From: Gemmatimonadota bacterium | GTDB lineage: Bacteria > Gemmatimonadota > Gemmatimonadetes > Gemmatimonadales > GWC2-71-9 | Assembly (NCBI GenBank): GCA_039586365.1 | Contig: JBDHKN010000025.1 | Location: 1-48,582 of the forward strand | Direction: 5' to 3' | DNA length: 48,582 bases | Shown: positions 4,053-28,378 of the stretch, piece after piece | Position numbering within the stretch: position 1 is the stretch's first letter | Layout: every line of letters begins with the position of its first letter | Made by a program: the position numbers and the translations under genes | Notes under the pieces: model-generated | The model's input: the letters and a program-made list of their open reading frames with translations, nothing else | What the model was told of the DNA's origin: nothing | The model's database searches: none

Positions 4053-4065
4053 GCCAAGTCTTCAT

Positions 4066-8876: not shown

Positions 8877-9146
8877 GTTGACAGTATCTCCGGTTCTTCA
8901 TGCTACTGGTGGTGTCGCAGGTGGAGTCACCAGCGGTTACCCTTCAGCCCCTCACCAGAACAAGTAGATCTGACGGACGACCGACTGCAAGTGGACGGAG
9001 CAAACCGAAGGGCCGCCACCATCAAGGCGTCACCTCAGAAACCGGACTACCTGGAACCGGCGTATCCACCTCAATAGATTCTTTCCGCAACCGGGACCAA
9101 TCTACACTCGCAAGTCCCGATCGAACTGGTGAATCGGAGAACCTCC

Positions 9147-9650
9147 ATGCCCAAAAAAGCAGTCCAGACCGCACTCAACGCTCAGATCCAGATGGAGCTC
9201 GAGTCTGCCTACGTCTACCTGGCAATGGCAGCTTTCCTAGAGGAGCAAAATCTCCCGGGATTCGGCCATTGGATGCGGATGCAATTCCAGGAGGAAATGG
9301 CCCATGCGATGAAGATCTTCGATTACGTGCTCGACAGCGGCGGCCACGTCGAGCTCAAGGCAATCGGACAGCCGCCTGCCACCTTCAAGGGTCCCCTCGC
9401 GGTAATGAAGCAGGCGTTGAAGCATGAGCAGAAGGTCACTGCCTCCATCACCAAGCTCTACGAGCTTGCGTTGAAGGAAAAGGACTATCCGGCCCAGGTG
9501 CTGCTACAGTGGTTCATTGCCGAGCAATTGGAGGAAGAGAAGACGGTGGGTGACATTATCGCCCAACTGGACAGGGTTGGCGACAGTGGTGCCGGGTTGG
9601 AGATGATTGACCGTCAGCTCGCAGCGCGGACCGCGGAAGAGCAGGAGTAG
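9147..9650 (+). CDS. ftn: Non-heme ferritin
   Basis: ALNAQIQMELES..YLAMA, EEMAHAMK, HEQKVT, LQWFIAEQLEEE ferroxidase residues; GGAG SD before ATG 9147. Confidence 0.93.
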   Translation: MPKKAVQTALNAQIQMELESAYVYLAMAAFLEEQNLPGFGHWMRMQFQEEMAHAMKIFDYVLDSGGHVELKAIGQPPATFKGPLAVMKQALKHEQKVTASITKLYELALKEKDYPAQVLLQWFIAEQLEEEKTVGDIIAQLDRVGDSGAGLEMIDRQLAARTAEEQE

Positions 9651-9663
9651 AGCTGGTACCATA

Positions 9664-9688
9664 CCTGGCGCCGCCGGTCGGCGCCAGG
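9664..9688. terminator. Perfect 10-bp hairpin between convergent ferritin and CBS genes
   Basis: CCTGGCGCCG-CCGGT-CGGCGCCAGG; no clear U-tract. Confidence 0.55.
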
Positions 9689-9689
9689 C

Positions 9690-10124
9690 TCATCCCGCGG
9701 TAGTGATGTAGTCAGTGAGGTGCTCGATCGTGGTTTCGTGATCTTTGGCCTGATAGGCCAATATGTCACCACTCGTCACGATACCCACGATGCCATTCTC
9801 GTCAATCACCGGAACATGGCGGATTCTCTTGGCGGTCATTATTGCACTACAATCCTCGAGGGAGATGTGCGGCCTGCAGCTCACTACGGGTGCTGTCATC
9901 ACCTCTCGTAATGTTGTGGTCGCCGGGTCACGTTGTTCGGCGACAACTCGACGCATGACATCTCGTTCGGTGAAGATACCGATCATCTCCTCCCCATCGG
10001 TAACGATGACCCCACCGATCCCTTGATTGTTCATGAGGTTCGCGGCATTGAGGACGGAATCGGACGCGACCATGGATACAACGGTCGTGCCCTTGCGGCC
10101 CAAGACGGTCGCAACGGTAGCCAT
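9690..10124 (-). CDS. CBS domain pair protein
   Basis: GIFTERD, VMT, RIRHVPV, GIVTSGD; AAGGAG SD before ATG 10124. Confidence 0.92.
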   Translation of the reverse strand: MATVATVLGRKGTTVVSMVASDSVLNAANLMNNQGIGGVIVTDGEEMIGIFTERDVMRRVVAEQRDPATTTLREVMTAPVVSCRPHISLEDCSAIMTAKRIRHVPVIDENGIVGIVTSGDILAYQAKDHETTIEHLTDYITTAG

Positions 10125-10208
10125 GGTGTACTCCTTAACTTGAGGGCGAACCACCATACTACCTTGGGACTGCTTAAAACGCCAGCAAATATGGAGCCTA
10201 GTTAAGTA

Positions 10209-11495
10209 TTAGAGCAGTTGCGCAACGGCGCTAGCTGCTCGATCCACTTCCTCCATCGTGTTGTAGACATGAGGGGACAGCCGCACCCCGGCGAAGTCAC
10301 CTCCCATGGCAGCCCCGGCGACGGTGTGCTCCGAATAGAGCTTCTCAAAGGCTGCCCGCGGATCGGCGTCGGCTCGGGTGAACACAACCACGCCGGCGCT
10401 GAGATCCGGATCCGCAGGTGTGTGGAATCTGATGTCCGGCACCAAGTTGCGAAGCGCTTGCTTGAGGCCCGAAGCTAGCGCGCGTACCCGCTCTTCCACC
10501 CGGTCAGGACCGATCGTGTTGTGAAATCCGACGGCTGTTCCCATTGCAGCCACCGCTGCGTCGTCACGCTGACCCAGATTCTCGAACTTGCTGGCGCCGC
10601 GCTCCAACGCACCCTCCCATCCGACACCGACATCGCTGGGCCATAGATCGGCGATTCGATCCCGGCGGACGTACAGCAAGCCCACCTCCTTGGGTCCCAT
10701 CAGCCACTTGTGTGAGCTGCCTGTGTAGAAGTCGCATCCCATATGGTGGAGATCTACTATGATGGCCCCGAAGGTCTGAGCGCCGTCCACCAATGTCAGG
10801 ATGTCACGCTCCCGAGCCAACGAGCACAGTTGCTGGGCCGGCAGCCTGACGCCAGAGACGTTTGACACGTGGCTGAACGCCAGCACACGGGTATTGCGGC
10901 TCAGTACTTCGCGGAACGGTCGAATGAGATCTTCAGCGGTGCTCGGAGCTGCCGGCGTTGCAACCCGGTGCACTACGTAGCCGTAGCGCTGGGCTCTCAC
11001 ATCCCAAGCCACATTGTTGGTGGGGTGATTCTGGTCCCAGATGACCACTTCATCTCCCGGACCCAGTGTCAGCCCGTTTATCACCGCATTGTTGCCCTCG
11101 CTTGTGTTCCGAGTGAGGGCGATCTCATCCGAATCGGCCGCCAAGAATCTGGCCAACAGATCCCTTGCTGTCTCTCGCAGCTCAGCAAACTTGCCGCGGT
11201 TCTGGAACGAGGCGTCACTATCCACATCCCCGGTCAATGCAGTCACCGCGTTGATTACCGGATACGGTGAAGGGCACAGGTTCGCAGCGTTCATCATGAC
11301 CAGATTGTGTCGGAGCGGGAACTGCTCCTTCACCAGCTGCCAATAGTGTTCGTCCAGCGCACCTTGGGGAGGCGTGAGGATATGGGATGGCCTGCTGGGG
11401 ATCGATCGGATCACGGTTGCTGGAGGGACCAGCGCGGTGGCCGCGACGCCACCTGCCAACCCTTTGAGAAACGTCCGGCGATTCTGGGAATCCAT
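10209..11495 (-). CDS. Tat-signal class V PLP-dependent aminotransferase-fold enzyme (isopenicillin N epimerase/desulfurase-like)
   Basis: NRRTFLKG twin-arginine leader, RNTSEG, VDGAQ, SSHKWLMGP (PLP lysine), RLSPHVYN. Confidence 0.88.
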   Translation of the reverse strand: MDSQNRRTFLKGLAGGVAATALVPPATVIRSIPSRPSHILTPPQGALDEHYWQLVKEQFPLRHNLVMMNAANLCPSPYPVINAVTALTGDVDSDASFQNRGKFAELRETARDLLARFLAADSDEIALTRNTSEGNNAVINGLTLGPGDEVVIWDQNHPTNNVAWDVRAQRYGYVVHRVATPAAPSTAEDLIRPFREVLSRNTRVLAFSHVSNVSGVRLPAQQLCSLARERDILTLVDGAQTFGAIIVDLHHMGCDFYTGSSHKWLMGPKEVGLLYVRRDRIADLWPSDVGVGWEGALERGASKFENLGQRDDAAVAAMGTAVGFHNTIGPDRVEERVRALASGLKQALRNLVPDIRFHTPADPDLSAGVVVFTRADADPRAAFEKLYSEHTVAGAAMGGDFAGVRLSPHVYNTMEEVDRAASAVAQLL

Positions 11496-11908: not shown

Positions 11909-13834
11909 ATGACGACGACAAAACCTGCTCCAGCTGAGGAAGCACTGTCCGATAACAGAGCGAAGCGGAAGAAGCGGAAGGTCAAGACCGTTCGGGTGCC
12001 AGAGCACACCGTTGAGGTCGTTTCCGACTCTGGCGAAGGAGCTCAGAAGTGCGGTCAGATTTTCGGCCAGGTATCTGCGATGATGGGTAATGGGACCTGG
12101 ACCGTCGAGATCATTCCTGCAGAGATCCAGCCACCGCCGAGGACTCCACCCTCCGCGAGCGGCAACAGGATTAGGCTCGGCACGAAGTTGGTGTCCAACT
12201 GGGGAGATGGAGCCGACCTAGTGGTCGCCTTCAACGAACAGGTGTTGCTGCACCGGCACAGACTGGAGGGACTCAAGGAGGGCTGCACGATTCTCATCGA
12301 CAGCCAGTGGGAGAGTCATGAGGACGAGGACATCCGGAAACAATACGCCGAAGCAGTGGAGGAGATGTCCAGCCACAACTACCGTTACATCCCGTTCCCG
12401 TTGGAGGAGCAGTCAGCCACCATCGTCGAGAACCCCAAAAAGGGCAAGAATATGTTTGCCCTCGGTGTGCTTTCCTGGATCTACTCACGCGATCTCGACA
12501 GAATTCGGGATCTCATCGCCCGGTCGTTCAAGAAGAAGGCGAAGGAGATCACTGAGGCAAACGTGGCGCTGCTCGAAGCGGGTTACAAGTGGGCGGATGA
12601 GAACCTCGACTTCAAGGTCGAGGTTCCGACGGAACAGTCCACTGTGCCTCGGGTGGTGATGAACGGCAATCAGGCGATCGGGTTCGGTGCCATTGCGGCT
12701 GGGATGGAGCTCTGCTCGATGTATCCGATAACTCCTGCAACGTCAGCCTCACATCACCTGAGTGAGATCTTCCAGAAGTTCGGGGGAATCGTACATCAAG
12801 CCGAAGATGAGATTGCTGCCATCGGATTAGCGGTGGGTGCCTCGTTTGCCGGCAAGGTCGCGTTTACGATCACTTCGGGTCCTGGTTTGGCGCTGAAGAC
12901 TGAGTTCATCGGGCTCGCCGTGATGACCGAAGTGCCCTTAGTCATAGTCGACGTCCAGCGGGGCGGTCCCAGCACCGGCCTTCCAACCAAGATTGAGCAA
13001 GCCGACCTGCTGGCATCGATCTACGGGCAACCGGGGGACGCACCCCACGTGGTCATGGCCCCTGCCACCATGGAAGAGTGTTTCCTTTGCATGACGACGG
13101 CGCGCCGCATTGCCGAGGCGTTCCGGGTACCGGTGATGGTCCTGACGGACGCAAATCTTGCGACCGGCGTTCAACCGTTCCCTCGGCCGGATCTCAAAGC
13201 GGAGTGGCAAGCGGCCCCGCCCGATCTGAGCGCTGTACCCGATGGCACTCGGGCCTACGAGTGGGATCCGCAGCTGGGTACTTCGCAGCGGCTCATCCCC
13301 GGCATGCCCGGAGGAATGCACATCGCTACCGGTTTGTCTCATGACGAGAACAGCAAGATCGGATACAGCCCGGACGTACATGAGCGTGGCTGTCAGATGC
13401 GCGCCCGCAAGATGGCAGTGTTCCAGCAGACCCTGAAACAACCCGAGGTGCACGGTGCTGAATCGGGTGATCTGTTGGTGGTTGGCTGGGGCAGTACGTG
13501 GGGAGCCATCGAGGAGGCAGTGGATCGGGCCCGTGCAGAAGGCCTCTCCGTATCTTCGCTCCAACTGCGCATCCTCGCACCGATGGAACCTGGCCTCAAA
13601 GAGATCTTCAGCCGGTTCAAGAAGGTGATGACCGTAGAGATCAACTACAGTGACGATCCGTCCGATCCGTTCATCACAGACGAGAACCGGCGCCGAGGAC
13701 AATTGTGTTGGCTGCTCCGTGCTCAGACCCTGGTGGACGTGGACTGTTGGACACGGGTGCCGGGTGAGCCGCTCAAGCCGGGTCAGATCCATCAAGCTAT
13801 TCGTAGCCACATGCCGACTGGAGACAAAGCATGA
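11909..13834 (+). CDS. 2-oxoacid:ferredoxin oxidoreductase alpha subunit (gamma-alpha fusion)
   Basis: SDSGEG, PAEI, MNGNQA, YPITPAT, QAEDEIAA, TSGPG, QRGGPSTGLPT, VGWGST. Confidence 0.93.
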   Translation: MTTTKPAPAEEALSDNRAKRKKRKVKTVRVPEHTVEVVSDSGEGAQKCGQIFGQVSAMMGNGTWTVEIIPAEIQPPPRTPPSASGNRIRLGTKLVSNWGDGADLVVAFNEQVLLHRHRLEGLKEGCTILIDSQWESHEDEDIRKQYAEAVEEMSSHNYRYIPFPLEEQSATIVENPKKGKNMFALGVLSWIYSRDLDRIRDLIARSFKKKAKEITEANVALLEAGYKWADENLDFKVEVPTEQSTVPRVVMNGNQAIGFGAIAAGMELCSMYPITPATSASHHLSEIFQKFGGIVHQAEDEIAAIGLAVGASFAGKVAFTITSGPGLALKTEFIGLAVMTEVPLVIVDVQRGGPSTGLPTKIEQADLLASIYGQPGDAPHVVMAPATMEECFLCMTTARRIAEAFRVPVMVLTDANLATGVQPFPRPDLKAEWQAAPPDLSAVPDGTRAYEWDPQLGTSQRLIPGMPGGMHIATGLSHDENSKIGYSPDVHERGCQMRARKMAVFQQTLKQPEVHGAESGDLLVVGWGSTWGAIEEAVDRARAEGLSVSSLQLRILAPMEPGLKEIFSRFKKVMTVEINYSDDPSDPFITDENRRRGQLCWLLRAQTLVDVDCWTRVPGEPLKPGQIHQAIRSHMPTGDKA

Positions 13835-14787
13835 TTGACACTTCTTGCTCGCTGCTCGGTTGTAGCGTCGATGAGGACGAGCGTTATCTATCGATGGCCG
13901 ACTATGAGGGCGCTGTCGCTCGGTGGTGCTCTGGCTGTGGAGACCACGCGGTGCTCACTGCTGTGCAGCGACTGCTCGAGGCTGAGCAATTGGCTCCGGA
14001 GAGGACCGTGTTTGTATCGGGGATTGGTTGCTCGAGCCGGTTTCCTCACTACTTGAAGACGTATGGATTCCACGGACTGCACGGCCGTGCCTTGCCGGTT
14101 GCGACCGGGGTCAAGCTGCGTCGACCTGATCTCCATGTTTTCGCTGTGATGGGTGATGGTGACTGTACTTCTATCGGAGCGGCTCACTGGATCCACACGA
14201 TCAGGTACAACCCCAATATGGTCGCGTTGATGCTGGACAATGGGGTATACGGGCTCACCAAGAACCAAACCTCGCCCACTAGCCCGCGAGGCTTCCCGAG
14301 CAACACGCAACCGTTCGGCGCTGCACTGATGCCGTTGAACCCGATATCAACCACGCTCGGTGTGACCAACGCCTCGTACGTCGCGCAGACCGGCGATTGG
14401 GTTCCCGATCACCTTTACGAGACCATCGCAAAGGGATTCCGGCACAAGGGCTTCTCCTTCATACGTGTCCTGCAGCGGTGCCCGCAGTATACGACGGCTG
14501 TGTTTGAGGAAGCCGTGCGAAATCCTGATATGATCGAGTTGATGGTGCATCCGGATGGGATCAACGTGCCGGAGTTGGAGCAGGTTTACAAGAACCACGT
14601 ATACCACGATCCAGCTGATCTCGATAGGGGCCGCAGCCTCGCGGAGCCCGACGGGAAGATCCGGCTGGGTCTGTTCTACCAAAACGAGAGCCTGCCTCGG
14701 TACGAGGAAGTGCGGCAGCTACCATCTCGTACTGCCGAGGAGAAAATCGAGCTTCTGAATGCGGAGTTAGACCGCTATGCCGTCTGA
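13831..14787 (+). CDS. 2-oxoacid:ferredoxin oxidoreductase beta subunit
   Basis: WCSGCGD, SGIGCSSR, HGRALP, GDGD...DNGVYGLTK TPP motif, QRCP; ATGA overlap with alpha. Confidence 0.93.
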   Translation: MIDTSCSLLGCSVDEDERYLSMADYEGAVARWCSGCGDHAVLTAVQRLLEAEQLAPERTVFVSGIGCSSRFPHYLKTYGFHGLHGRALPVATGVKLRRPDLHVFAVMGDGDCTSIGAAHWIHTIRYNPNMVALMLDNGVYGLTKNQTSPTSPRGFPSNTQPFGAALMPLNPISTTLGVTNASYVAQTGDWVPDHLYETIAKGFRHKGFSFIRVLQRCPQYTTAVFEEAVRNPDMIELMVHPDGINVPELEQVYKNHVYHDPADLDRGRSLAEPDGKIRLGLFYQNESLPRYEEVRQLPSRTAEEKIELLNAELDRYAV

Positions 14788-15778
14788 CGAACGGATCGAT
14801 CAAGCACTGAAGGCGCTTTCGGGCCAGATGCAGGCCTTCCGTTCTGCGTTGGCCAATACCATAGACCAGATTCGCCGCTTCCAAGCAGAGCACGGCGCGG
14901 CGGCGGAGAGTAAGGCCGATAGGGTAGCCACAGAACTGGGGCCGTTTGCCGTGGGCAGGATCGATTTCGAGCGGTTTTCGGAGCTGTTCACCGACACGCT
15001 CAAACTCGATCGCCCAACTCTCGAGACCATCGATAAGGCACACAAGACTCTCACCGAGCTAGCTGCCAGAGGCGAGAAGCTCTTTCTGACTACTGTCGAG
15101 AGCGGCGGCAGCGTTAGGGATTCGGTGGCAAGGGCCCTCGAAGAGGTGGGCCGTGCATACGGTGCCGCACGGGTCTTCGAGCTGTCGAAGTTCGGACGCT
15201 TCCCTGACAACGAACACGCACGTTCTCTCGGATCCTTCCCGTTTCACCGGTGGAGCAGTGGTGAGCGTCGCATGGCTCCCCCGCTTGTGGTAGCGGTCGA
15301 TGGGACGGACCTCAGGGCGGCTGGGCTGGCGGACTTCATGGATGGGGCTCAAAAAATCGTCTTGGTTGTCAGCGGGGAAACGACCCCGGTTCCGCTGGTC
15401 AGGTTGATCATGCCGGGGACTTTCGTAGCGCAGATCGCCAGCAGCACCGACCTGGACCGTCTGGCAAATTGGGACGGCCCCGGTATCGTCGCGATCGTGC
15501 CGGATACCGCAGCCTGTTTTGTCCACGACCCGGGACGGGGCACTGCAGCGTGGGAGCGGCTCAAGATCACTCATATGCCCGAAGATCGGCGGCGCAAGCC
15601 AGTGGGTGGGGTGAGTGTGAAACAGCAGTCGGAAGAGTTGTTGCAGCTCAAGACCCTGGGTGCGGCTCGGGGTGCGGTTGAGGAACCAGCAGTAGCAGTT
15701 GCCGCAGGATCGACTGATCCTGTTGACAAGCTGGCAGCGTGGTTGCTCACACAGGCCGACCTCACGGACATCGAGTAG
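14777..15778 (+). CDS. Uncharacterised protein; degenerate (pseudo-enzyme) homolog of the PFOR TPP-binding domain
   Basis: Overlaps the beta stop. Residues 124-169 align ungapped with PFOR residues 1150-1195 (14/46 identical), with further collinear blocks. It lacks the GDG motif and has only one Cys. Confidence 0.75.
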   Translation: MPSDERIDQALKALSGQMQAFRSALANTIDQIRRFQAEHGAAAESKADRVATELGPFAVGRIDFERFSELFTDTLKLDRPTLETIDKAHKTLTELAARGEKLFLTTVESGGSVRDSVARALEEVGRAYGAARVFELSKFGRFPDNEHARSLGSFPFHRWSSGERRMAPPLVVAVDGTDLRAAGLADFMDGAQKIVLVVSGETTPVPLVRLIMPGTFVAQIASSTDLDRLANWDGPGIVAIVPDTAACFVHDPGRGTAAWERLKITHMPEDRRRKPVGGVSVKQQSEELLQLKTLGAARGAVEEPAVAVAAGSTDPVDKLAAWLLTQADLTDIE

Positions 15779-15788
15779 CGGTCTCAAT

Positions 15789-16640
15789 ATGGATGTGTCG
15801 ACGATCGTAGTATCGGTGGCGATCCTCGGTGGGGTCGGGCTCGTGTTCGGCGCTTTTATCTCTCTCGCAAACATGAAGCTCAAGGTATGGGAGGACCCGC
15901 GGATCGACGCCGTTGTTGAGTTGCTCCCAGGGACGAACTGCGGGGCTTGCGGCCAGGCGGGTTGCCGAGCCTTTGCCGAAGCCCTGGTCTCCGCCAAAGT
16001 AACGCCGGCTACGTGCACTGTAATGGGTCCTGATGACGTAGCAGATGTGGCTGAGTATCTGGGAGTTGACGCTGGTGAAGCCAACAGACGGGTGGCAAGG
16101 CTACTCTGTGCCGGCGGGTCCGATGTGGCGGTGCGGCAGGCCGAATATCGTGGTTTGCAGACCTGTAAGGCCGCTGTAGCGGTTTCGGGGGGTGGTAAGG
16201 GATGTAGGTGGGGGTGCCTCGGGTTGGACGACTGTGAAGTTGCATGTGACTTCGACGCCATCGTCATGAACGAAGTCGGCCTTCCAATCGTGATCCCGAG
16301 CAATTGCACTGCCTGTGGTGACTGCGTTGAGGCTTGCCCTCTGGATCTGTTCACTATAATGCCGCTCGAATACAAGCTCATCGTGCAGTGTAAGAACTTG
16401 TTGGAGGGGGATGAAGCGGAGGACGTTTGTAAGGTGGCGTGCACTGCGTGTGGTAGATGCGCTGCGGACGCAGCACCTGGATTGATCGAAATGGTAAACG
16501 GACTTGCGGTGATAGACTACAGTATGAACGCATTAGCCAGCCCTGACGCCATTGCGCGGTGTCCTACCGACGCGATTGTCTGGGTTGAGGGACCACAGTT
16601 CGCAGACAGGCCTGAGCTGGCAAGGAGCGCTACGGTATGA
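15789..16640 (+). CDS. rnfB: Rnf complex subunit B
   Basis: N-terminal TM anchor, LPGTNCGACGQAGC, LLCAGG, CRWGCLGLDDCEVAC, CTACGDCVEACP; start at ATG 15789 (MDVSTIVV). Confidence 0.92.
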   Translation: MDVSTIVVSVAILGGVGLVFGAFISLANMKLKVWEDPRIDAVVELLPGTNCGACGQAGCRAFAEALVSAKVTPATCTVMGPDDVADVAEYLGVDAGEANRRVARLLCAGGSDVAVRQAEYRGLQTCKAAVAVSGGGKGCRWGCLGLDDCEVACDFDAIVMNEVGLPIVIPSNCTACGDCVEACPLDLFTIMPLEYKLIVQCKNLLEGDEAEDVCKVACTACGRCAADAAPGLIEMVNGLAVIDYSMNALASPDAIARCPTDAIVWVEGPQFADRPELARSATV

Positions 16641-19600
16641 AACCCAAGAAGACAGACAACACACCTGCGGCCCCCAAGTACCCGGGTATTCGGACCGCAG
16701 TGGATGGCTCTCAAGCCGTCGTCGACATGGAGACTGCTGCGAGCGAAGCTGCTGGCGCCTACCCGATCACACCGTCCACTCAGATGGGTGAAGGCTGGGC
16801 GGCTGCAGTAGCAGCGGGTAAACGGAACGTGAACGGGCGCAAGCTCATCTTCTTCGAACCGGAAGGAGAGCACGCGGCCGCCGCTGTGACAGCCGGCATG
16901 TCGATGACGGGCCTCAGGTCTGCCAACTTTTCGAGCGGGCAGGGGATCGCATACATGCACGAATCCCTGTACCCAGCGGTCGGCAAGCGACTCACCTATG
17001 TCCTGAACATCGCCGCCCGTGCGATGACGAAGCACGCATTGAATGTGCACGCCGGGCACGACGATTATCACGCGGTGGACGACACGGGTTTCTTCCAGCT
17101 GTTCGCCAAGAACCCACAGGAGATAGCTGACCTCAACCTGATCGCGCACCGGATTGCCGAGTTGTCCCTGAATCCTGGCATCTGCGCACAAGACGGCTTC
17201 TTGACCAGCCACGTGATCGAGACCGTTGACATACCCGAGCGGGAGTTGGTGAAGGAGTACTTGGGCGATCCATCCGACATCATCGATTCACCTACGCCGG
17301 CTCAAAAGCTCGTCTTTGGCGAGAAACGCCGCCGCATTCCCGAGATGTTCGATCTGGACTACCCGGCCATGATAGGCGTGGTCCAGAACCAGGACTCGTA
17401 CAATCAGGGTGTTGCCGCCCAACGTCCGTTCTACTTCGACCACATCCAGCAACTCGCCGACAAGGCGCTCGAGGAATATGCGCAGCTGACCGGTCGTCGC
17501 TACCGCAGGGTGAACGGCTATCGGATGGATGATGCCGAGTACGTGATAGTCGGTCAGGGGTCAGTGGTATCCAACGCGGAAGTCGTGTGCGATTACCTGC
17601 GAGAGGTTCGTGGGATCAAGGTCGGAGTTCTGAACGTCACCATGTTCCGGCCGTTTCCAGCTGATCAGATCACCGCCACCCTGCGCGGGAGAAAGGGTGT
17701 GACCGTACTAGAGCGGACTGACCAGCCGTTGGCGGTCGACCTGCCGTTGCTCAAGGAGATCCGGGCTGCGATGGGCAAAGCTCTCGAGAACCATCGGGCC
17801 AAGGACCGAGTCCCATTCGCCGGAGTCACTGCCTGCGGTCCTGATGAGATCCCGGAGTTCTATTCCGGATGCTTCGGCCTCGGCAGTCGTGACATCCAGC
17901 CAGGTCAGCTCGTCTCTGCCGTTGAGAACATGTTGGATACAGGCAAAAAGCAGCGCCTGTTCTATCTGGGCATAGACTTCGTGAGGGCTGGTACGCAGCT
18001 GCCGAAGCTCCAGATCTGGCAAGAACAGCTACTGGAGAGCTATCCCCACCTCGCCGATCTCGCGCTTCCGTCGAAGGCTGATCTGAACTTGGCTCCAAAG
18101 GGCGCCATCGCAATCAGGATTCACTCAGTTGGTGGTTGGGGAGCGATCACGACGGGGAAGAACGTCGCGATGACTGCAGCCGACCTTATGGGCTTGTATA
18201 TCCAGGCGAACCCGAAATATGGATCCGAAAAGAAGGGACAACCGACGACGTTCTACGCGACCTTGGCAGAGGAACGGATCCGACTCAACGCAGAGTTGAA
18301 ACACGTGAACGTCGTGTTGTCGCCAGACCCCAACGTGTTCCGACATTCGAACCCGCTCGCCGGCATGGAACAGGATGGCGTATTCGTGATCCAGAGCGAC
18401 CTGCCGGAAACGGAGTTCTGGAACGGTCTCCCAACTACGGCACAGCGGTACATCAGGAAGCACAACATCAAGGTCTACCTGCTTGACGGTTTCAAGATCG
18501 CGATGGAGGAGGCTTCGGATCCTTCGCTGCGATACCGTATGCAGGGTGCGGCTTTCATGGGAGCGTTCTTTCACGTCGCGCCACTGATGGACCGGTACGA
18601 AGTCACCGAAGAGAAGCTGTTCGAAGGAATCCGTGGACAGCTCAACAAGAAGTTCGGACACCTCGGACAGCGTGTAGTCGAGGACAACGTGCGTGTGATC
18701 CGGCGCGGATTCGACGAGATCAGGGAGGTCGATCCATCGGTGTTCCCCGACCAGGACCAGGATGCTGGCAAACTGCCTCAGATGCCGGACGAGCTGGACG
18801 GTACGGGCTGGCGTGACGGCATTGGCAACCCCGGCCGGTTCTGGGAGCAGGTTTGTCACGTCTACAAGAGTGGAGATGACGGCATCGCCGATCCGTTTGC
18901 AGCCATCAGCGCAATACCGGCAGCGACGAGCACGATCCGTGACATGACCGACGTGCGGTTCGAGGTGCCGGAGTTCATCCCGGAGAACTGCACGGGCTGC
19001 GGTCAATGTTGGGTACAGTGTCCCGACACGGCAATACCGGGGTTGGTGACTGAGATCGACCAGGTCATCTACTCGGCTATCAATTCTGTATCGAATGGGA
19101 AGACCTATGATCGGTTGCGCCAGGTAGTCCCGCATATCGCAAGGGAGTCACGGCGCATCATGAAGGGCGTCGCGGTGAAGAACTTCGCCGACGTGATGTC
19201 GACTGCCTATCAGACTGTGAGTGGCAAGCTCAACTTGGATCCGGAACGCCGCTCGGAACTCGATGCGGAGTTCGCTCCGGTCTATTCCGCGCTTGCCGAG
19301 TTCCCGCTGGCCAAGACCGCACCGTTCTTCGATCTGCCAGAGGACCAGGAGAAGGGGACCGGAGGCCTACTGTCGATCACGGTGAATCCCGAGACCTGCA
19401 AGGGCTGCAATATCTGTGTTGATGTTTGCCCGGACAATGCGCTCATCACTGTCAAGCAGGATGAGCAGGCGGTTGACAAACTGCGTCGCAACTGGAAGCT
19501 CTGGAAGCAGCTGCCGGAGACGGATGACCGCTACATCAACGTGTCTAATATCGACGAAGGCATCGGCGTCCTGTCTTCGCTGCTGTTGAAGAAACACAAC

Positions 19601-21673
19601 TACAGGTCAATGCTCGGTGGAGACGGCTCGTGCATGGGCTGTGGCGAGAAGACTGTGATCCATCTGGTGCTCTCCGCGGTCAACGCCCTGATGATCCCGC
19701 GGGTGATGAAGTACGTCGACAAACTCGACGATTTGGTCGCTCAGCTCGACGCAAAAGCACGTGCGATTGTGGCGTCCGACGCTGACCTCGACTCGGTGAC
19801 CAAGAGCGACGGTGATGTTGCCATCCAGCTGGAGCAGTCCAAGCAGGAGCAGGTGGAGTTGATCAACTCGATCCTGCATGACCTCAAGGATCTGAGATGG
19901 CGCTACACCGAGGGGCCGAGTGGCAAGGGTCGCTCAACGCTCGGCATGACGAACGCTACCGGTTGTTCGTCCGTTTGGGGCAGTACCTATCCATACAACC
20001 CCTATCCGTTCCCGTGGACCAACCATCTGTTCCAGGATGCCCCATCGATCGCGATCGGCATCTTCGAGGGCCACATGCGCAAGATGGGGGATGGCTTCAA
20101 GGCTGTACGCCGAGCGGAGCTGTTACTCAAGGGCGAATATGACGCCGAAGTGCATGAGCCCTTCCTTGGCAACTTCGACTGGCGACAGTTCAACGACGAG
20201 GAGTTTGGCATGTGCCCGCCCATCTTCGCCGTTGGTGGTGACGGGGCCATGCTGGACATCGGTTTCCAAAACCTCTCCCGTCTGCTGGCGTCAGGCAAGC
20301 CTCTCAGGGTGATCGTGCTCGACACGCAGGTGTACTCCAACACTGGCGGTCAAGCGTGCACCAGTGGGTTTCTGGGGCAGATATCCGATATGGCGGCGTA
20401 TGGCAAAGGCCAACACGGTAAGGAGGAGATGCGTAAGGAGTTGGCGCTGATAGCGATGGCGCACGGCAGGGTCTTTGTTCTGCAGGGTAGCCAGGCAGCC
20501 GCGTCGCATCTGATCGAAGGCGTGTTGAGGGGTTTGCAGTCACGTACACCCGCGGTGTTCGCTCTGCACTGTCCCTGTCCGCCTGAGCACGGCTTGGGCG
20601 ACGACCAGGCGACACGCGCATCGAAGCTGGCCATGGAGAGTCGTGCCTACCCAATCCTGACCTACGACCCCAGCGCCGGGGAGTACATCTGCGATCAACT
20701 GAGCCTGGACGGCAACCCGGAAGTCGAAGATACGTGGCCCACTTACGAGTTGACCTACGTGGACGGCGAGGGGAATGAGCAGCGCATGGAGCTGCCTATA
20801 ACGATCGCCGACTGGGCTGCCACGGAGACTCGGTTCATCAAGCACTTCAAGAGGCTGAAGGGTGACGCGGATGAGGATGCCTTGGTGCCATTCCACCAGT
20901 TCATGGAACTCTCGGGCGAGGACAGAGAGGGTAAGACGCCCTTCATCTATCAGATCGACGACGACAAGAAGCTGACGCGTCTACTCGTATCACACGAGAT
21001 GGTCCTGCTCGCCGAAGATCGCTTGGAGGTTTGGTCCAAGCTAAAGCAGATGGCCGGCCTCGAGATTCCACCCACTGTCCGGGACACGGTCGAATCCGAG
21101 CTAGAAGAAGAGTTCAACAAGAAGACTGAGGCAATCCAAATCGAGTACTCGGCGAAGCTCGCCGAGTTGAAGGCCCGCTATCCTGCGATTGTGGCTCGGA
21201 AGTTGGCACAAGGATTGGTGCGGGCTGGCAACGGTCAGCAGACAGTTGCCGAGCTACTCGACAAGGTTCAAAGCATGCGCGGGTTAGCGCCGATCTCGGC
21301 GGACGTGACTGGAGTCGAAGGTGATTTTGCTGTCACCGGAGGGGGGGCGCCGGCAGCTGTTGCGGAGGCCCCTGCTGCGGTCGCTGCACCCGCGGTGGTT
21401 GCCGAGGAGGAAGAAGAAGGCCTCGCTATGGAGCCGTACATCGAGTCCGCTCGATGCACGACCTGTGACGAATGCACCAAGCTCAACAAGAAGATGTTTG
21501 CGTACAACGACAAGAAGCAGGCATACATCAAAGATGCCAAGGCCGGAACTTTCAAGCAGTTGGTGCAAGCGGCTGAGAAGTGTCCGGTTCGGATAATTCA
21601 TCCGGGAACACCGCTCAATCCGAAGGAGAAAGAACTGGAGAAGTGGTTGAAGCGGGCTGAGCCCTTCAACTGA
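16637..21673 (+). CDS. por: Large single-chain pyruvate:ferredoxin oxidoreductase with insertions and a fused C-terminal ferredoxin
   Basis: YPITPS, EGEHAA, AARAMT, YGSEKKG, two CxxCxxCxxxCP motifs, CMGCGE, NATGCSSVWG, GGDGAMLDIG...YSNTGGQ; C-terminal CTTCDEC...CP. Confidence 0.93.
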   Translation: MKPKKTDNTPAAPKYPGIRTAVDGSQAVVDMETAASEAAGAYPITPSTQMGEGWAAAVAAGKRNVNGRKLIFFEPEGEHAAAAVTAGMSMTGLRSANFSSGQGIAYMHESLYPAVGKRLTYVLNIAARAMTKHALNVHAGHDDYHAVDDTGFFQLFAKNPQEIADLNLIAHRIAELSLNPGICAQDGFLTSHVIETVDIPERELVKEYLGDPSDIIDSPTPAQKLVFGEKRRRIPEMFDLDYPAMIGVVQNQDSYNQGVAAQRPFYFDHIQQLADKALEEYAQLTGRRYRRVNGYRMDDAEYVIVGQGSVVSNAEVVCDYLREVRGIKVGVLNVTMFRPFPADQITATLRGRKGVTVLERTDQPLAVDLPLLKEIRAAMGKALENHRAKDRVPFAGVTACGPDEIPEFYSGCFGLGSRDIQPGQLVSAVENMLDTGKKQRLFYLGIDFVRAGTQLPKLQIWQEQLLESYPHLADLALPSKADLNLAPKGAIAIRIHSVGGWGAITTGKNVAMTAADLMGLYIQANPKYGSEKKGQPTTFYATLAEERIRLNAELKHVNVVLSPDPNVFRHSNPLAGMEQDGVFVIQSDLPETEFWNGLPTTAQRYIRKHNIKVYLLDGFKIAMEEASDPSLRYRMQGAAFMGAFFHVAPLMDRYEVTEEKLFEGIRGQLNKKFGHLGQRVVEDNVRVIRRGFDEIREVDPSVFPDQDQDAGKLPQMPDELDGTGWRDGIGNPGRFWEQVCHVYKSGDDGIADPFAAISAIPAATSTIRDMTDVRFEVPEFIPENCTGCGQCWVQCPDTAIPGLVTEIDQVIYSAINSVSNGKTYDRLRQVVPHIARESRRIMKGVAVKNFADVMSTAYQTVSGKLNLDPERRSELDAEFAPVYSALAEFPLAKTAPFFDLPEDQEKGTGGLLSITVNPETCKGCNICVDVCPDNALITVKQDEQAVDKLRRNWKLWKQLPETDDRYINVSNIDEGIGVLSSLLLKKHNYRSMLGGDGSCMGCGEKTVIHLVLSAVNALMIPRVMKYVDKLDDLVAQLDAKARAIVASDADLDSVTKSDGDVAIQLEQSKQEQVELINSILHDLKDLRWRYTEGPSGKGRSTLGMTNATGCSSVWGSTYPYNPYPFPWTNHLFQDAPSIAIGIFEGHMRKMGDGFKAVRRAELLLKGEYDAEVHEPFLGNFDWRQFNDEEFGMCPPIFAVGGDGAMLDIGFQNLSRLLASGKPLRVIVLDTQVYSNTGGQACTSGFLGQISDMAAYGKGQHGKEEMRKELALIAMAHGRVFVLQGSQAAASHLIEGVLRGLQSRTPAVFALHCPCPPEHGLGDDQATRASKLAMESRAYPILTYDPSAGEYICDQLSLDGNPEVEDTWPTYELTYVDGEGNEQRMELPITIADWAATETRFIKHFKRLKGDADEDALVPFHQFMELSGEDREGKTPFIYQIDDDKKLTRLLVSHEMVLLAEDRLEVWSKLKQMAGLEIPPTVRDTVESELEEEFNKKTEAIQIEYSAKLAELKARYPAIVARKLAQGLVRAGNGQQTVAELLDKVQSMRGLAPISADVTGVEGDFAVTGGGAPAAVAEAPAAVAAPAVVAEEEEEGLAMEPYIESARCTTCDECTKLNKKMFAYNDKKQAYIKDAKAGTFKQLVQAAEKCPVRIIHPGTPLNPKEKELEKWLKRAEPFN

Positions 21674-21676
21674 TCT

Positions 21677-23008
21677 GTGCGTCGGATGCTACATAAACTG
21701 ACGTTTCGGCACGGGGTCCACCCGCCCGAATTCAAGGAGTTGACTGCGGCGGTGGCGGTACGGCGCATGCCGTTCCCTGACGAGGTCATCCTGCCGCTCA
21801 GCCAGCACACGGGCAAACCGGCGAGGTTGCTGGTCGAGCCCGGTGATCGAGTAGAGCGTGGTGACAAGATCGCGGAATCGGACGGTTTCATTTCTGCGCC
21901 GGTGCACGCCTCTGCAACCGGAATAGTCGAGGAGATCGGTCTGTGGCCGCATCCGCTGGGTTCCTACTCGACGGCCGTACGCATCAAGGTAGAACCCTAC
22001 TCGGCGCAGGCACCGCGGCCTCGCATGGTCCCGGAGTGGGAGGGACTGTCGCCTGAGGAAGTACGTCAGGCAGTACAGAATGCTGGTGTGGTGGGGCTTG
22101 GTGGTGCGGCGTTCCCAACGCACGTGAAACTCACCCCGCCCAAAGACAAGAAGATCGATACAATCATCATTAACGGGTGCGAGTGCGAGCCGTACCTGAC
22201 AACCGATCATCGCACCATGGTCGAGTATCCCGAGCGCGTACACCAGGGGATCAGGATCATGATGCAGTGCCTGAGTGTGGATCGAACGATGATTGGAATC
22301 GAGAGGAACAAGCCGGACGCCATTGAGGCCATTCAGGCTACTCTGCCCACGGATCTAGATGTTACGGTACATCCGCTCACGGTGAAGTATCCGCAGGGTG
22401 CCGAGAAGATGTTGATAGAGGCTCTAGTCGGAAGGGAAGTGCCGTCCGGCAAACTGCCGCTCGATGCCGGCGTCATTGTGCAGAATGTGGCGTCGGTAGC
22501 CACTATTGCCGAGGTGTTCGAGACCGGCATGCCGCTCATCGAGCGTATCGTCACGGTGACCGGGCGCGGCATCAAACGTCCGTCCAACCTGATCGTACCG
22601 GTTGGCACGAAGCTGCGCGATCTACTGGATGCCTGCGGCGGTCTCAAAGAAGATGCGTTCGAGATCGTCTTCGGTGGTCCCATGATGGGGGCAGCTCAGG
22701 CCGACCTGGACACACCGATTCTCAAAGGGACCACCGGTGTGGTGGTGTTGGCAGAATCTGAAGTCAAAGCGAAGGAGTCGCACCCGTGCATCCGTTGCGG
22801 ACACTGCCTGGATGCGTGTCCTGTATTCCTTAATCCGCAGCTGCTGGGAAGCCTGGCTAAGGCGGAACGCTGGGAAGAAATGGAAGCCAACCACTTGATG
22901 GACTGCATGCTCTGTGGTTGTTGCTCATATACTTGTCCCTCCAACATTCCTCTGAGTCAGCTCTTCCAACTCGCAAAGGCGGCACTAAGAAGACGTAAAG
23001 CAGCGTGA
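21677..23008 (+). CDS. rnfC: Rnf complex subunit C
   Basis: GVHP, LSQHTG, GLGGAAFPTHVK, NGCECEPYLT.D, KYPQGAEK, GGPMMG, CIRCGHCLDACP, CMLCGCCSYTCP. Confidence 0.96.
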   Translation: MRRMLHKLTFRHGVHPPEFKELTAAVAVRRMPFPDEVILPLSQHTGKPARLLVEPGDRVERGDKIAESDGFISAPVHASATGIVEEIGLWPHPLGSYSTAVRIKVEPYSAQAPRPRMVPEWEGLSPEEVRQAVQNAGVVGLGGAAFPTHVKLTPPKDKKIDTIIINGCECEPYLTTDHRTMVEYPERVHQGIRIMMQCLSVDRTMIGIERNKPDAIEAIQATLPTDLDVTVHPLTVKYPQGAEKMLIEALVGREVPSGKLPLDAGVIVQNVASVATIAEVFETGMPLIERIVTVTGRGIKRPSNLIVPVGTKLRDLLDACGGLKEDAFEIVFGGPMMGAAQADLDTPILKGTTGVVVLAESEVKAKESHPCIRCGHCLDACPVFLNPQLLGSLAKAERWEEMEANHLMDCMLCGCCSYTCPSNIPLSQLFQLAKAALRRRKAA

Positions 23009-24009
23009 CAAAACCCGCATTCCTACTCACGGCTTCCCCACACTTGGGGGCCGGTGATTCAACGCCAACCATCATGTGGTCAGTGGTGGCGAGCTTGGTG
23101 CCGGTGGTCGGGGCTTCGGTCTACTACTTCGGGCCCAGTGCAGTGTTGGTGATCGGGGCAGCAACTCTGGGAGCAGTGCTCGCGGAACGCATCTTCGGAC
23201 CCAAAGGTGCCCTGAGAGACGGGTCGGCGACCATAACCGGGTTATTGCTTGGGCTGACTTTGCCACCGGGACTCCCGGTGTGGATGGCCTTCATCGGCGG
23301 CGCGTTCGGAATCGGATTCGGAAAGCTCATCTTTGGCGGCCTGGGCCAAAACATCTTCAATCCCGCGTTACTCGGTCGGGCGTTCCTCCAAGCTGCATTC
23401 CCGGTGGCGATGACGACGTGGCCAGCACTTGGGGGAAACTGGTGGAGCCTGCGAGGGGACAACTTGGCTCTGCCGCTCATGAGCCCGCAGGTCCCTGACG
23501 GACTGACAGGTGCCACTCCGCTGGGCCTAATGAAGTTCGAACAGGTGACCACTGAGTACGCCGATCTGATGATCGGCTCGATTGGTGGATCGTTGGGAGA
23601 GACATCCGGCGTAATAATCTTGCTCGCCGGCGCCTATCTTGCGTTGCGGAATCATCTCAACTGGCGGATCCCGGCAAGCATCCTGATGACGGTGGCAGTT
23701 GTGGCTGGGTTGATCCATCTGCTGAGTCCCGAACGGTACCCGACCGCCATGTTCATGCTGTTCTCAGGCGGCCTCATCCTGGGAGCCGTGTATATGGCCA
23801 CTGACATGGTGACCTCTCCCGTCACCAATCGCGGCTGCTGGGTCTTCGGTGTTGGAGTTGGGGCCGTCGTGGTGGTGATTCGTCTCTGGGGTGGCCTCCC
23901 AGAGGGCGTGATGTACGCGATCCTTCTCATGAATGCGATGGTTCCCTTCATCAATCGCGCAACACAGCCCCGTGTTTTCGGCACGGGCCTGAGAGAGGTT
24001 AGCACGTGA
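23005..24009 (+). CDS. rnfD: Rnf complex subunit D
   Basis: ASPH, FGGLGQNIFNPA, DGLTGATPL (FMN-Thr), GSLGETS, MATDMVTSP, PEGVMYAILLMN. Confidence 0.96.
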   Translation: MTKPAFLLTASPHLGAGDSTPTIMWSVVASLVPVVGASVYYFGPSAVLVIGAATLGAVLAERIFGPKGALRDGSATITGLLLGLTLPPGLPVWMAFIGGAFGIGFGKLIFGGLGQNIFNPALLGRAFLQAAFPVAMTTWPALGGNWWSLRGDNLALPLMSPQVPDGLTGATPLGLMKFEQVTTEYADLMIGSIGGSLGETSGVIILLAGAYLALRNHLNWRIPASILMTVAVVAGLIHLLSPERYPTAMFMLFSGGLILGAVYMATDMVTSPVTNRGCWVFGVGVGAVVVVIRLWGGLPEGVMYAILLMNAMVPFINRATQPRVFGTGLREVST

Positions 24010-24686
24010 GCGGCGAAGACCAGACGATCGGTTCCGAACCTGCTGTGCCGTCCGCTCAGCAAGAGGTCCCACCGTGGCGCCTAGTCTCCACGTTGGGTAC
24101 GGCCGGTGCATTAGCGGGATTCTTGATAGTGTTTGTGTTCGTTGCCACCGAACCGACTATCAAGGCGCACAAAGCGATGGTGCTACGTCAAGCGATCCAG
24201 GAGGTGCTCAAAGGACCCGCCAGTTTCGACACGCTTTTCGTATACGACGGAGCACTGACTGCAGAGCTTCCCGCCGGTCAAGATCCCGAGAGCATGGATC
24301 AGATCTACGTAGGGTACGGCGATGACGGTAGCCAGGTCGGATTCGCTATGGTTGCGGCAGAACCGGGGTTCCAAGATATCGTGCAGCTCATATTCGGGTA
24401 CGAAGCGGGGTCGCAACGTGTCATCGGAATGAAAGTACTTGAGAGCCTAGAGACACCAGGCTTGGGTGACAAGATCGAGAAAGACCAGAGTTTTGTGAGA
24501 GAGTTCGACGGAGTGACGTCGCCGTTAGTTGGTGTGAAGCCTGGCCGGGCTACTGGAGACGAACACGAAATAGACATGATTACCGGAGCCACGATCTCGT
24601 CGCGTGCTGTGATCAAGATCATCAACAACGCAATCGAACGCTACAGCCCCCTCATTGCAGCACACAACGGTGGAGGAGTACAATGA
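24006..24686 (+). CDS. rnfG: Rnf complex subunit G
   Basis: Single TM helix, ETPGLG, DMITGATISS (FMN-Thr). Confidence 0.93.
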   Translation: MSGEDQTIGSEPAVPSAQQEVPPWRLVSTLGTAGALAGFLIVFVFVATEPTIKAHKAMVLRQAIQEVLKGPASFDTLFVYDGALTAELPAGQDPESMDQIYVGYGDDGSQVGFAMVAAEPGFQDIVQLIFGYEAGSQRVIGMKVLESLETPGLGDKIEKDQSFVREFDGVTSPLVGVKPGRATGDEHEIDMITGATISSRAVIKIINNAIERYSPLIAAHNGGGVQ

Positions 24687-25339
24687 GAGCAACGACTCCC
24701 CACCAGGATTTCACGCGCGGCATCTGGCGGGAGAATCCGGTATTGATTCAGATGCTGGGTCTATGCCCTGCCTTGGCTGTCACCAATACAGTCGCCAACA
24801 GCATTGCAATGGGGCTGGCTACGTTCTTCGTCCTGATGGGGTCGAGCTTGTTGGTCTCTTTGTCCAAGCGCTTCATCCCTAATGAAGTGCGAATCTCGAC
24901 CTTCATCTTGATCATTGCCACATTCGTGACGGTTGCGGACATGAGTCTGGAAGCAATCGTGCCGGACATCCACAAGGCGCTCGGTGCGTTTATAGCACTG
25001 ATTGTGGTGAATTGCATGATACTGGGTCGGCAAGAAGCGTTCGCATCAAAGCGCCCGGTGGGACGCTCACTGCTCGATGCATTGGGCACGGGCATAGGGT
25101 TCATCATTGCGATGCTGATGATGGGTACCGTGCGAGAAGTCCTCGGTAACGGAACCATTCTGGGGTTCAGTATCTTCGGATCAAACTACGAACCCTGGGT
25201 GATCTTCATTCTTCCCCCGGGCGGGTTCTTCACGATTGGCTTCATTCTGCTCGGACTCAACTACGTTCAGAGCCGCAGGAAACCGAAGCAGCTCGTGGCT
25301 GAGCTGCCTGGCGCCGGAACGGCGGGGAGGGCTGCATGA
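24683..25339 (+). CDS. rnfE: Rnf complex subunit E
   Basis: ENPV..QMLGLCP.LAVT, LIVVNCMILGR, REVLG, LPPGGF. Confidence 0.95.
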   Translation: MRATTPHQDFTRGIWRENPVLIQMLGLCPALAVTNTVANSIAMGLATFFVLMGSSLLVSLSKRFIPNEVRISTFILIIATFVTVADMSLEAIVPDIHKALGAFIALIVVNCMILGRQEAFASKRPVGRSLLDALGTGIGFIIAMLMMGTVREVLGNGTILGFSIFGSNYEPWVIFILPPGGFFTIGFILLGLNYVQSRRKPKQLVAELPGAGTAGRAA

Positions 25340-25917
25340 CGGCAGAGCTACTCTGGATCCTGGTTTCCGCAATGGTGGTGAACAACTTCACCCTCTATTA
25401 CTTCCTTGGCCTTTGCCCGTTCATGGGGGTCTCGGGGAAGGTCGAAACCGCAGTCCGCATGGGTGCCGCCAACATCTTCGTGTTGACCATCACTTCTATC
25501 TCAGTATGGATCCTCAACACCTACATCCTGGCTGCTGCGCCCTACCTCCGATTGATCTCGTTCATCGTTGTCATTGCGTCGACTGTGCAGATCGTGGAGA
25601 TGGCGATCAAGAAGATCAGCCCCGCACTGTTCCGGGCGCTCGGCATCTATCTCCCTCTCATTACCACCAACTGCGCCATACTCGGGTACGCGCTGTTCAA
25701 CACGAACAGAGGATACGGGTTCTTCGAAGGACTGGCATTTGCGTGGGGAGCCGGGCTGGGATTGACGCTCGCGCTGGTGTTGATGGCGTCGATTCGGGAA
25801 AGCACGGAGTTGATCGAAGTGCCTGATGTAGTGAAGGGGAACGCGTTGGTCTTCCTCATAGCAGGGTGCCTGTCACTTGCGTTCATGGGGTTCGCCGGGC
25901 TCCTGAGCTCCACATGA
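25336..25917 (+). CDS. rnfA: Rnf complex subunit A
   Basis: NNF.L..FLGLCPFMGVS, LGIYLPLITTNCAILG, IRE, SLAFMGFAGL. Confidence 0.95.
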   Translation: MTAELLWILVSAMVVNNFTLYYFLGLCPFMGVSGKVETAVRMGAANIFVLTITSISVWILNTYILAAAPYLRLISFIVVIASTVQIVEMAIKKISPALFRALGIYLPLITTNCAILGYALFNTNRGYGFFEGLAFAWGAGLGLTLALVLMASIRESTELIEVPDVVKGNALVFLIAGCLSLAFMGFAGLLSST

Positions 25918-26093: not shown

Positions 26094-26296
26094 GATGAAC
26101 CGAGTAACCGCGCGACTACGGGTGCTGGCCAGGAAGTGAGGGTTGGGGAAGAACTGCAGGGCTTCGGCTTGCGCGTCTCGGCAAATTTCCTTTACTTGGA
26201 CTATAGACCACCACTTGAGTATTCCCCGTGGAGCGCACAGTATGACCCAGCTCTGGCTCCGCGCCGATCCGCCGCCATTTGCGCTCAGCCGCTGCG

Positions 26297-28377: not shown

Positions 28378-28378
28378 A

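Follow-up and report, generated by a model that had tools for sequence, protein, structure and literature searches.

A putative cofactor-less paralogue of the PFOR thiamine pyrophosphate domain encoded between korB and rnfB in Gemmatimonadota

Introduction

The contig JBDHKN010000025.1 of a Gemmatimonadota bacterium (assembly GCA_039586365.1), of which positions 1 to 48,582 are referred to here as the window, carries a run of tightly packed genes in the order korA, korB, X, rnfB, long PFOR, rnfC, D, G, E, A. The third of these, X, is an open reading frame of 333 aa at 14777-15778 on the forward strand, and the long PFOR is the operon's single-chain pyruvate:ferredoxin oxidoreductase (PFOR) of 1678 aa. 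The locus raises the question of what X is and what it does between the genes of a 2-oxoacid:ferredoxin oxidoreductase (OFOR) and those of Rnf, a complex that is thought to draw its electrons from soluble ferredoxin. In a first-pass annotation X was taken for a catalytically dead copy of the thiamine pyrophosphate (TPP)-binding domain (domain VI) of PFOR, serving as a structural adaptor. Here we followed up this proposal with profile comparisons, structure searches and surveys of gene context.

Origin of X

Based on comparisons of family profiles we found that X and the C-terminal third of the long PFOR are almost certainly paralogues, both descending from a common domain VI, and as far as sequence can tell the long PFOR is the parent of X. 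The X profile consisted of 257 rows, namely the query and those 256 of 267 fetched proteins that measure 300-380 aa. Its top non-self match among 20,272 open frames in the genome of the host was the long PFOR, at E 3.5e-5. Conversely, with a profile of PFOR 985-1480, 117 of the 257 X rows scored above 10 bits, the best at 32, compared to 0/257 for both reversed and shuffled rows. In profile-profile comparison X 120-272 aligned with PFOR 1146-1365 (probability 45.5, E 2e-4; KorB gave E 0.04 and KorA 0.35), and the gaps in this alignment coincided exactly with the DTQVYSNTGGQ loop and with the CPCP segment and its following helix. Two 494-aa proteins that occupy the korB-rnfB slot in a sample of 151 genomes matched both PFOR 1142-1528 (E 4e-30) and, at E 7e-17, the profile of X. 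A three-row intermediate profile, built from these two slot-mates and one piece of a 1282-aa protein, matched X with a probability of 97.9 (E 3.5e-13), N-terminal helices included, and PFOR 1011-1530 with a probability of 100 (E 4e-48). Because these intermediates from the same slot bridge both proteins, we regard the paralogy as settled. The 494-aa form is itself a family with 156 matches, including Deltaproteobacteria, Myxococcales, Opitutaceae, Puniceicoccaceae and a planctomycete.

The pairwise likeness on which the first-pass annotation was built was recovered as described: 14/46 ungapped identities between X 124-169 and PFOR 1150-1195, four aromatic swaps (Y128/F, F142/Y, F156/W, W159/F) and further collinear blocks at X 213, 233 and 248, corresponding to PFOR 1276, 1303 and 1341. 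The block alone is borderline, as 14/46 was matched somewhere in the full PFOR by 5/100 shuffles. In the suggested shuffle statistics a Smith-Waterman score of 63 was reached by 1/300 shuffles for the full PFOR and by 0/300 for PFOR 1010-1362. The pairwise signal by itself is weak (BLASTP E 0.002), and its significance rests on the family profiles and the intermediates. The helical N-terminus had been likened to the PFOR-specific insert; the direct comparison was not significant (P 0.035 against 0.025 for an unrelated PFOR window), and the correspondence was recovered only through the intermediates.

The features of X and of the related parts of the long PFOR, all on the forward strand, are as follows.

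14789..15085, forward: X aa 5-103, hairpin of helices that corresponds to the insert of the long PFOR (about aa 1003-1091) and is helical in both models
15146..15283, forward: X aa 124-169, best-conserved block (G125, W159, E163, R164, PP), matching PFOR 1150-1195
15293..15313, forward: X aa 173-179, eroded TPP/Mg motif, AVDGTDL compared to GGDGAML in PFOR
15719..15754, forward: X aa 315-326, terminal helix, conserved and borne on an Ala/Pro linker of low confidence, a candidate docking element
19667..21226, forward: long PFOR aa 1011-1530, part of the chain to which the X family is paralogous, by profile via the intermediates
21434..21670, forward: long PFOR aa 1600-1678, ferredoxin domain after an Ala/Glu-rich linker (PF13370 above cut-off at 1603-1655)

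In an alignment of 150 rows the terminal helix positions L319, A320, W322, L323 and L324 were each conserved in at least 90%, R164 and Q219 were invariant and H250 was near-invariant. The linker (aa 299-312) had a predicted local distance difference test (pLDDT) score below 50.

An origin of X from KorB or KorA was rejected at the profile E values given above; the KorB pairwise score was reached by 156/300 shuffles. X had no Pfam match at cut-off (DUF6674 at E 0.18 only), none to PF02775 (TPP_enzyme_C) at E up to 1, none to any NCBIfam family at E up to 0.01, including the RnfH and NqrA models, 0 PDB matches by sequence profile at E 10 and no usable match in the ESM Atlas. The 494-aa family profile found no real match in the PDB, and one 494-aa and one 843-aa form gave no Pfam match at 1e-5.

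Loss of catalytic motifs

The GDG of the TPP/Mg site was found at positions 170-182 in 0/257 rows of the X family. The reported replacement of GGDG by AVDGTDL is thus right in that GDG is gone, but a DG survives with a one-residue shift (D175 in 170/257, G176 in 251/257). It is preceded by Val, Leu or Ile in 244/257 rows, and D178 is present in 232/257. The DTQVYSNTGG loop, whose Thr we take to be the second Mg ligand, was deleted from X in the profile alignment, with Gly at the column aligned to T1230 in 229/257 rows. The same NTGG loop holds the substrate Asn of PFOR, Asn996 (PMC5020499). The Fe-S cysteines, including the four of the proximal [4Fe-4S] cluster, are absent, as the first-pass annotation had stated: no row had CxxC (0/257), 78 rows had no Cys at all, the best Cys column reached 83/257, and the single Cys of X itself is C247. 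In the 494-aa family (114 members) GGDG, NTGG and CxxC were all absent.

X is therefore very probably cofactor-less and, as judged from the lost motifs, would be catalytically inactive. The idea of a dead copy of the PFOR TPP domain was in this way borne out by profile, intermediate, fold and motif evidence, with inactivity read from motif loss. The ratio of nonsynonymous to synonymous substitution rates (dN/dS) did not exceed 0.46 in 67 of the 68 close X pairs, which are not independent of each other, and the exception had a dS of 0.004. These codon comparisons show purifying selection on X, and on the same figures we rejected the idea of a decaying pseudogene. Most of the positions conserved in X have conserved counterparts in the PFOR framework.

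Predicted fold

The AlphaFold2 model of X had a mean pLDDT of 86.2. With this model Foldseek placed PFORs at ranks 1-7 (best E 6e-3) and oxalate oxidoreductase beta at rank 10, and VIA-align on the Foldseek candidates gave PFOR residues ~809-1171 at ranks 1-5 (Z 8.1-8.3, rmsd 6.8-7.6, 188-196 residues aligned). A match at Z 8.3 had an rmsd of 6.9 over 196 residues. Domain VI of single-chain PFORs (Desulfovibrio africanus 1B0P/2C3Y and Moorella thermoacetica 6CIN/6CIO) was the top match in these and in a third, wider search. The fold that the first-pass annotation had expected was thus ranked first three times with moderate scores, which is support rather than proof, and with moderate confidence X is predicted to have the domain VI fold. 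A model of PFOR 990-1560, which itself matched PFOR at E 2e-13, had its elements in the same order as X (long helix, helix, strand, long helix, two short helices, alpha/beta core), and the strand and helix order of the core in the operon's own domain VI is the same as in X.

Compared to the solved PFORs, X is a separate chain of 333 aa with 9-13% identity, and it has no GDG site, NTGG loop or cluster cysteines. Its helical hairpin is without equivalent there (91 residues compared to 8). The beta subunits of alpha/beta OFORs (Sulfolobus tokodaii 5B46/5B48, the 2-oxoglutarate:ferredoxin oxidoreductase (OGOR) of Magnetococcus marinus 6N2N) and the oxalate oxidoreductase beta subunit 5EXE are, like X, stand-alone domain VI chains encoded next to an alpha gene, and X matched 5exe_F with Z 7.0. 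Such beta subunits carry TPP, Mg and [4Fe-4S], however, whereas here KorB does so and X is an extra chain with a different parent.

Operon and gene context

The genes of the operon, all on the forward strand, are the following.

11909..13834, forward: korA-type OFOR alpha subunit, domains III-I-II, motifs intact (TIGR03710 above cut-off)
13831..14787, forward: korB-type beta subunit with GDGD and cluster cysteines, overlapping the start of X by 11 nt
14777..15778, forward: X, 333 aa, ATG start, putative cofactor-less paralogue of long-PFOR domain VI
15789..16640, forward: rnfB (TIGR01944 above cut-off)
16637..21673, forward: long PFOR, single chain, 1678 aa, with YPITP, E76, CMGC, GGDG, NTGG and CPCP all present
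21677..25917, forward: rnfC, rnfD, rnfG, rnfE, rnfA (NCBIfam: rnfC, D and E above cut-off, rnfG and rnfA slightly below)

All six Rnf genes are present in the order rnfBCDGEA, here with the 1678-aa PFOR between rnfB and rnfC and with korAB and X in front. The korA product had YPITP in 51/51, and its closest solved chain was 6n2n_A (E 3.8e-84). The GGDG of the long PFOR lies at 1200-1203 and is kept in 48/50 long PFORs of X loci; KorA, KorB and 48/50 of these long PFORs retain their catalytic motifs. A promoter scan gave 0 sigma-70-like sites compared to 5.1 expected, and terminators were not in excess.

Relatives of X numbered 202 in a word-based search and 477 as representatives at 50% identity. 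Gene context was surveyed in 160 loci, made up of the best 80 of 178 genome matches and 80 of 305 metagenome matches, a few of which are the same contig. The best 80 genome loci comprised 71 from Gemmatimonadota, 2 each from Rokubacteria and Planctomycetota, and others from Acidobacteriota, Myxococcaceae, Acidimicrobiia and 2 further bacteria. In the loci where this could be tested, korB was directly upstream of X in 150/150, rnfB downstream in 149/149, korA present in 120/121 and the long PFOR in 112/113. The 11-nt overlap of korB with the start of X was found in 69 of the 70 genome loci with both ends aligned.

Among 301 genomes of the host's phylum (sample 1), X was present in 52 and the long-PFOR insert (E <1e-40) in 53, with 51 shared; the one genome with X and no long PFOR had the X gene near a contig end. 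Operon-type korB (E <1e-100) occurred in 51 genomes of this sample, all 51 with X. The 151 genomes from the phylum of the Myxococcaceae locus L078 (sample 2) included 11 with operon-type korB, and a form of X adjoined it in all 11 (in G599 by coordinates only). In three further genomes of sample 2, unrelated genes preceded rnfB-long PFOR-rnfCDGEA; X was absent, and the only beta subunits were generic ones encoded elsewhere. Similarly, Persicobacter psychrovividus pPP1 had the long PFOR and rnf genes, and no korAB or X within the 25 kb examined. X thus tracks KorAB and not PFOR, since PFOR-Rnf operons without X exist and the operon korAB was never seen without it; this is a pattern among related, partly incomplete genomes and not a statistical test. 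For inter-protein covariation (average-product-corrected mutual information, 50-129 paired loci), the positive controls KorA-KorB and RnfC-RnfD were inseparable from the negatives.

Gemmatirosa kalamazoonensis KBS708, a cultured organism, also has the whole operon on its plasmid 1 of 1.1 Mb (NZ_CP007129.1), with a gap of ~1.2 kb between rnfG and rnfE. Directly upstream of the operon korA, two loci (L064 and L066, about 4000-6500) had a further korAB pair, which is divergent (34% and 49% identity). In an operon without korAB or X, the gene preceding rnfB (L108:13064-14104, reverse strand) is presumably related to the ApbE flavin transferase.

In the window itself, immediately 3' of rnfA, AmmeMemoRadiSam system protein B is encoded at 26279-27118 on the forward strand (TIGR04336 above cut-off), and none of the 80 genome loci of X was reported to contain a significant match to this protein. 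The window also has a second alpha/beta OFOR pair, of 626 and 342 aa, at 27349-30259 on the reverse strand, directed toward the operon end. Upstream of the operon, 9129-11495 holds a ferritin-like gene on the forward strand, and a CBS-domain gene and a class V aminotransferase with a Tat-like leader on the reverse strand. Elsewhere in the host genome there was a second RnfC-like match at C20:39648-40622 (31% identity, E 9e-33).

Graded series of X forms

The slot of X was found to hold open frames of very different length. Those of 1379, 1282, 1270, 843, 843, 765 and 669 aa all had a C-terminal CxxCxxC ferredoxin, and those of 494 and 333 aa had none; YPITP, GGDGA and NTGG were absent from every form. 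For the 7 X forms with ferredoxin the downstream PFOR was dead and ferredoxin-less (6/6 complete), with two domain V motifs kept, whereas the short X forms have the ferredoxin on their PFOR instead. Each operon therefore has one tethered ferredoxin, carried by either X or PFOR. Fused forms of 642-2000 aa were sought among 8000 candidates and none was found, but this search was weak and missed the long X forms that were found later. In a quick tree of 47 rows with long branches, X forms and PFOR forms were split on one branch (Shimodaira-Hasegawa-like approximate likelihood ratio test 96), which fits one duplication.

At seven loci (L110, L111, L112, L113, L117, L201 and L202) two dead PFOR paralogues flank rnfB and KorAB is the sole chain with catalytic motifs. 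In two Rokubacteria loci with X of the 333-aa type (L047:2779-7716 and L056:6574-11334) the long PFOR had no YPITP, GGDG or NTGG (in L056 also no CMGC) and still carried three CxxCxxC motifs, apparently a separate and recent decay into an electron wire. One complete genome had a stand-alone PFOR 62% identical to that of the window (L086:9114-13760, reverse strand), with no X, korAB or rnf nearby; this PFOR was without the hairpin tip (about 1037-1066) and everything past aa 1521, including the C-terminal ferredoxin. Another long-PFOR subfamily (L087, L088, L089, L115, L116 and L118; frames of about 1570-1620 aa, 31-42% identity) had no C-terminal ferredoxin in the four that were checked, and no rnf match in the stretches examined.

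Discussion

In our reading the conserved task of the operon is to connect KorAB to Rnf, and X rather likely serves it as a subunit without catalytic function, by which KorAB is kept in place on a PFOR scaffold that is itself wired to Rnf. A single duplication of the long PFOR gene would have produced a pair of PFOR and X in which the former self-contacts persisted, and X would pack on PFOR through three elements, its helical hairpin (5-103), the insert at 113-165 and the terminal helix (315-326). The surface of X would in turn recruit KorAB. Alpha/beta OFORs have no domain V and show an open pocket for an external ferredoxin, as described in the structural account of Yan et al. (PMC5020499). 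KorAB would need the tethered ferredoxin of PFOR (aa 1600-1678) because it has no ferredoxin domain V of its own, and this domain may shuttle electrons between the KorB cluster and RnfB. In this way 2-oxoacid oxidation could drive ion pumping, or the ion gradient could drive carboxylation, and X would be the remnant of a duplicated scaffold that is still required once the PFOR chain carries the ferredoxin. The host genome also encodes a conventional 2-oxoglutarate dehydrogenase E1, so that KorAB-Rnf would be an additional route.

The first-pass annotation had proposed an adaptor that breaks the symmetry of the PFOR dimer and links PFOR to the alpha/beta OFOR or to RnfB. A link between PFOR and the alpha/beta OFOR gains indirect support from the co-occurrence of X with operon-type korB and its absence from PFOR-Rnf operons without korAB; that same absence disfavours a link to RnfB alone. 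Breaking of symmetry is plausible, as X and PFOR forms split on one branch, but X has no domains I and II and could not replace a whole protomer. The OFOR dimer interface is built by domains I, II and VI, of which I and II are the main parts, in the description by Yan et al. (PMC5020499).

Several observations weigh against this role. X has domain VI only, which would make the geometry of a PFOR-X-KorAB assembly its weak point, and contact between X and a partner is something we infer. The co-occurrence with korB would also fit an assembly factor or a regulator of KorAB and could arise from one inherited gene block, and the long branches of the tree could also cause the split of X from PFOR. 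The structural match is moderate: no Foldseek hit of the X model reached E 0.001, and in the wide search of 48,161 chains PFOR came first with Z 7.7, close to helical bundles at 7.1. Finally, no X is found beside the second alpha/beta OFOR pair of the window, which indicates that such enzymes do not need X in general.

X could instead act only transiently, as a factor for assembly or protection that has no place in the working complex and binds apo-KorB or the apo-domain VI of PFOR as a surrogate partner during loading of TPP and Fe-S clusters, or shields them from oxygen. The korB overlap in 69/70 loci and the way X follows korB agree with this, as does the 2-oxoglutarate dehydrogenase E1 of the host, which suggests a partly aerobic life. 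We nevertheless consider it unlikely, since the longer X forms have a tethered ferredoxin exactly where PFOR lost its own, which argues for a standing role in electron transfer, and since the second alpha/beta OFOR does without X. A slightly lower chance is given to X as a pseudo-beta subunit of KorAB (alpha2-beta-X) that silences or tunes one of the two active sites, with no need for the long PFOR. Gene position and co-occurrence follow korB and the fold of X is that of a beta subunit, but X derives from the long PFOR and not from KorB, its best-conserved block is the insert common to the long PFOR, and X without the long PFOR was seen in a single genome of 52. We find it improbable that X is an accessory subunit of Rnf which docks the long PFOR on RnfB independently of KorAB. 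In its favour, rnfB followed X in every testable locus and cofactor-less subunits are known in Rnf and Nqr (PMC12174285, PMC4014512); however, the 4 long PFOR-Rnf operons without X that were examined all lack the operon korAB too. Very improbable is a ligand-binding or catalytic role of its own, such as sensing a phosphorylated metabolite via the remnant DG, to which D175, D178, R164, Q219 and H250 might point, as most conserved positions match the PFOR framework and the loops closing the TPP site are deleted.

The nearest conceptual precedent is NqrA, which like RnfH is a cofactor-less subunit (of Nqr and Rnf, respectively) and would work like X; no sequence relation of either to X was found in NCBIfam, and X comes from a thiamine enzyme. 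NqrA is described as an RnfC homologue that lost its cofactors and kept a proposed structural role (PMC4014512, PMC12174285). The epsilon subunit of five-subunit PFORs (Aquifex, Hydrogenobacter) is, like X, an extra subunit of an OFOR operon. It is set apart from the domain VI-derived X by its published description, in which its role is unknown and it matches none of the seven PFOR domains (PMC13768988). The part of that 2026 review on subunit composition lists PFORs of one, two, four and five subunits and no domain VI pseudo-subunit, and the solved OFORs are presented there as symmetric dimers of identical cores. In Endoriftia, 'PFOR-like' and korAB(3) genes were reported as co-regulated (PMC11636981), and these may or may not be the X operon. 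Full-text literature searches found no description of X or of the operon, although a mention in tables of a genome paper is possible. The X family is real and conserved, and apparently undescribed in print.

Going further, with a chance that we put a little short of even, KorAB, X, the long PFOR and Rnf may form one membrane-bound supercomplex, an ion-pumping 2-oxoacid:NAD+ oxidoreductase working without free ferredoxin. Its core would be a PFOR/X heterodimer from one duplication with one swinging ferredoxin arm on either chain, and lineages would lie between two extremes, a pair of dead scaffolds of full size and an active PFOR with a 333-aa minimal adaptor. With a cultured host of the operon (Gemmatirosa kalamazoonensis KBS708) and a small X without predicted cofactor, the adaptor idea can be tested. 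In their graded lengths the X forms clearly record how, in nature, an enzyme turned into a scaffold. If the proposed arrangement is true, Gemmatimonadota and members of several other phyla would have hard-wired energy conservation from pyruvate or other 2-oxoacids, or the synthesis of these acids from CO2.

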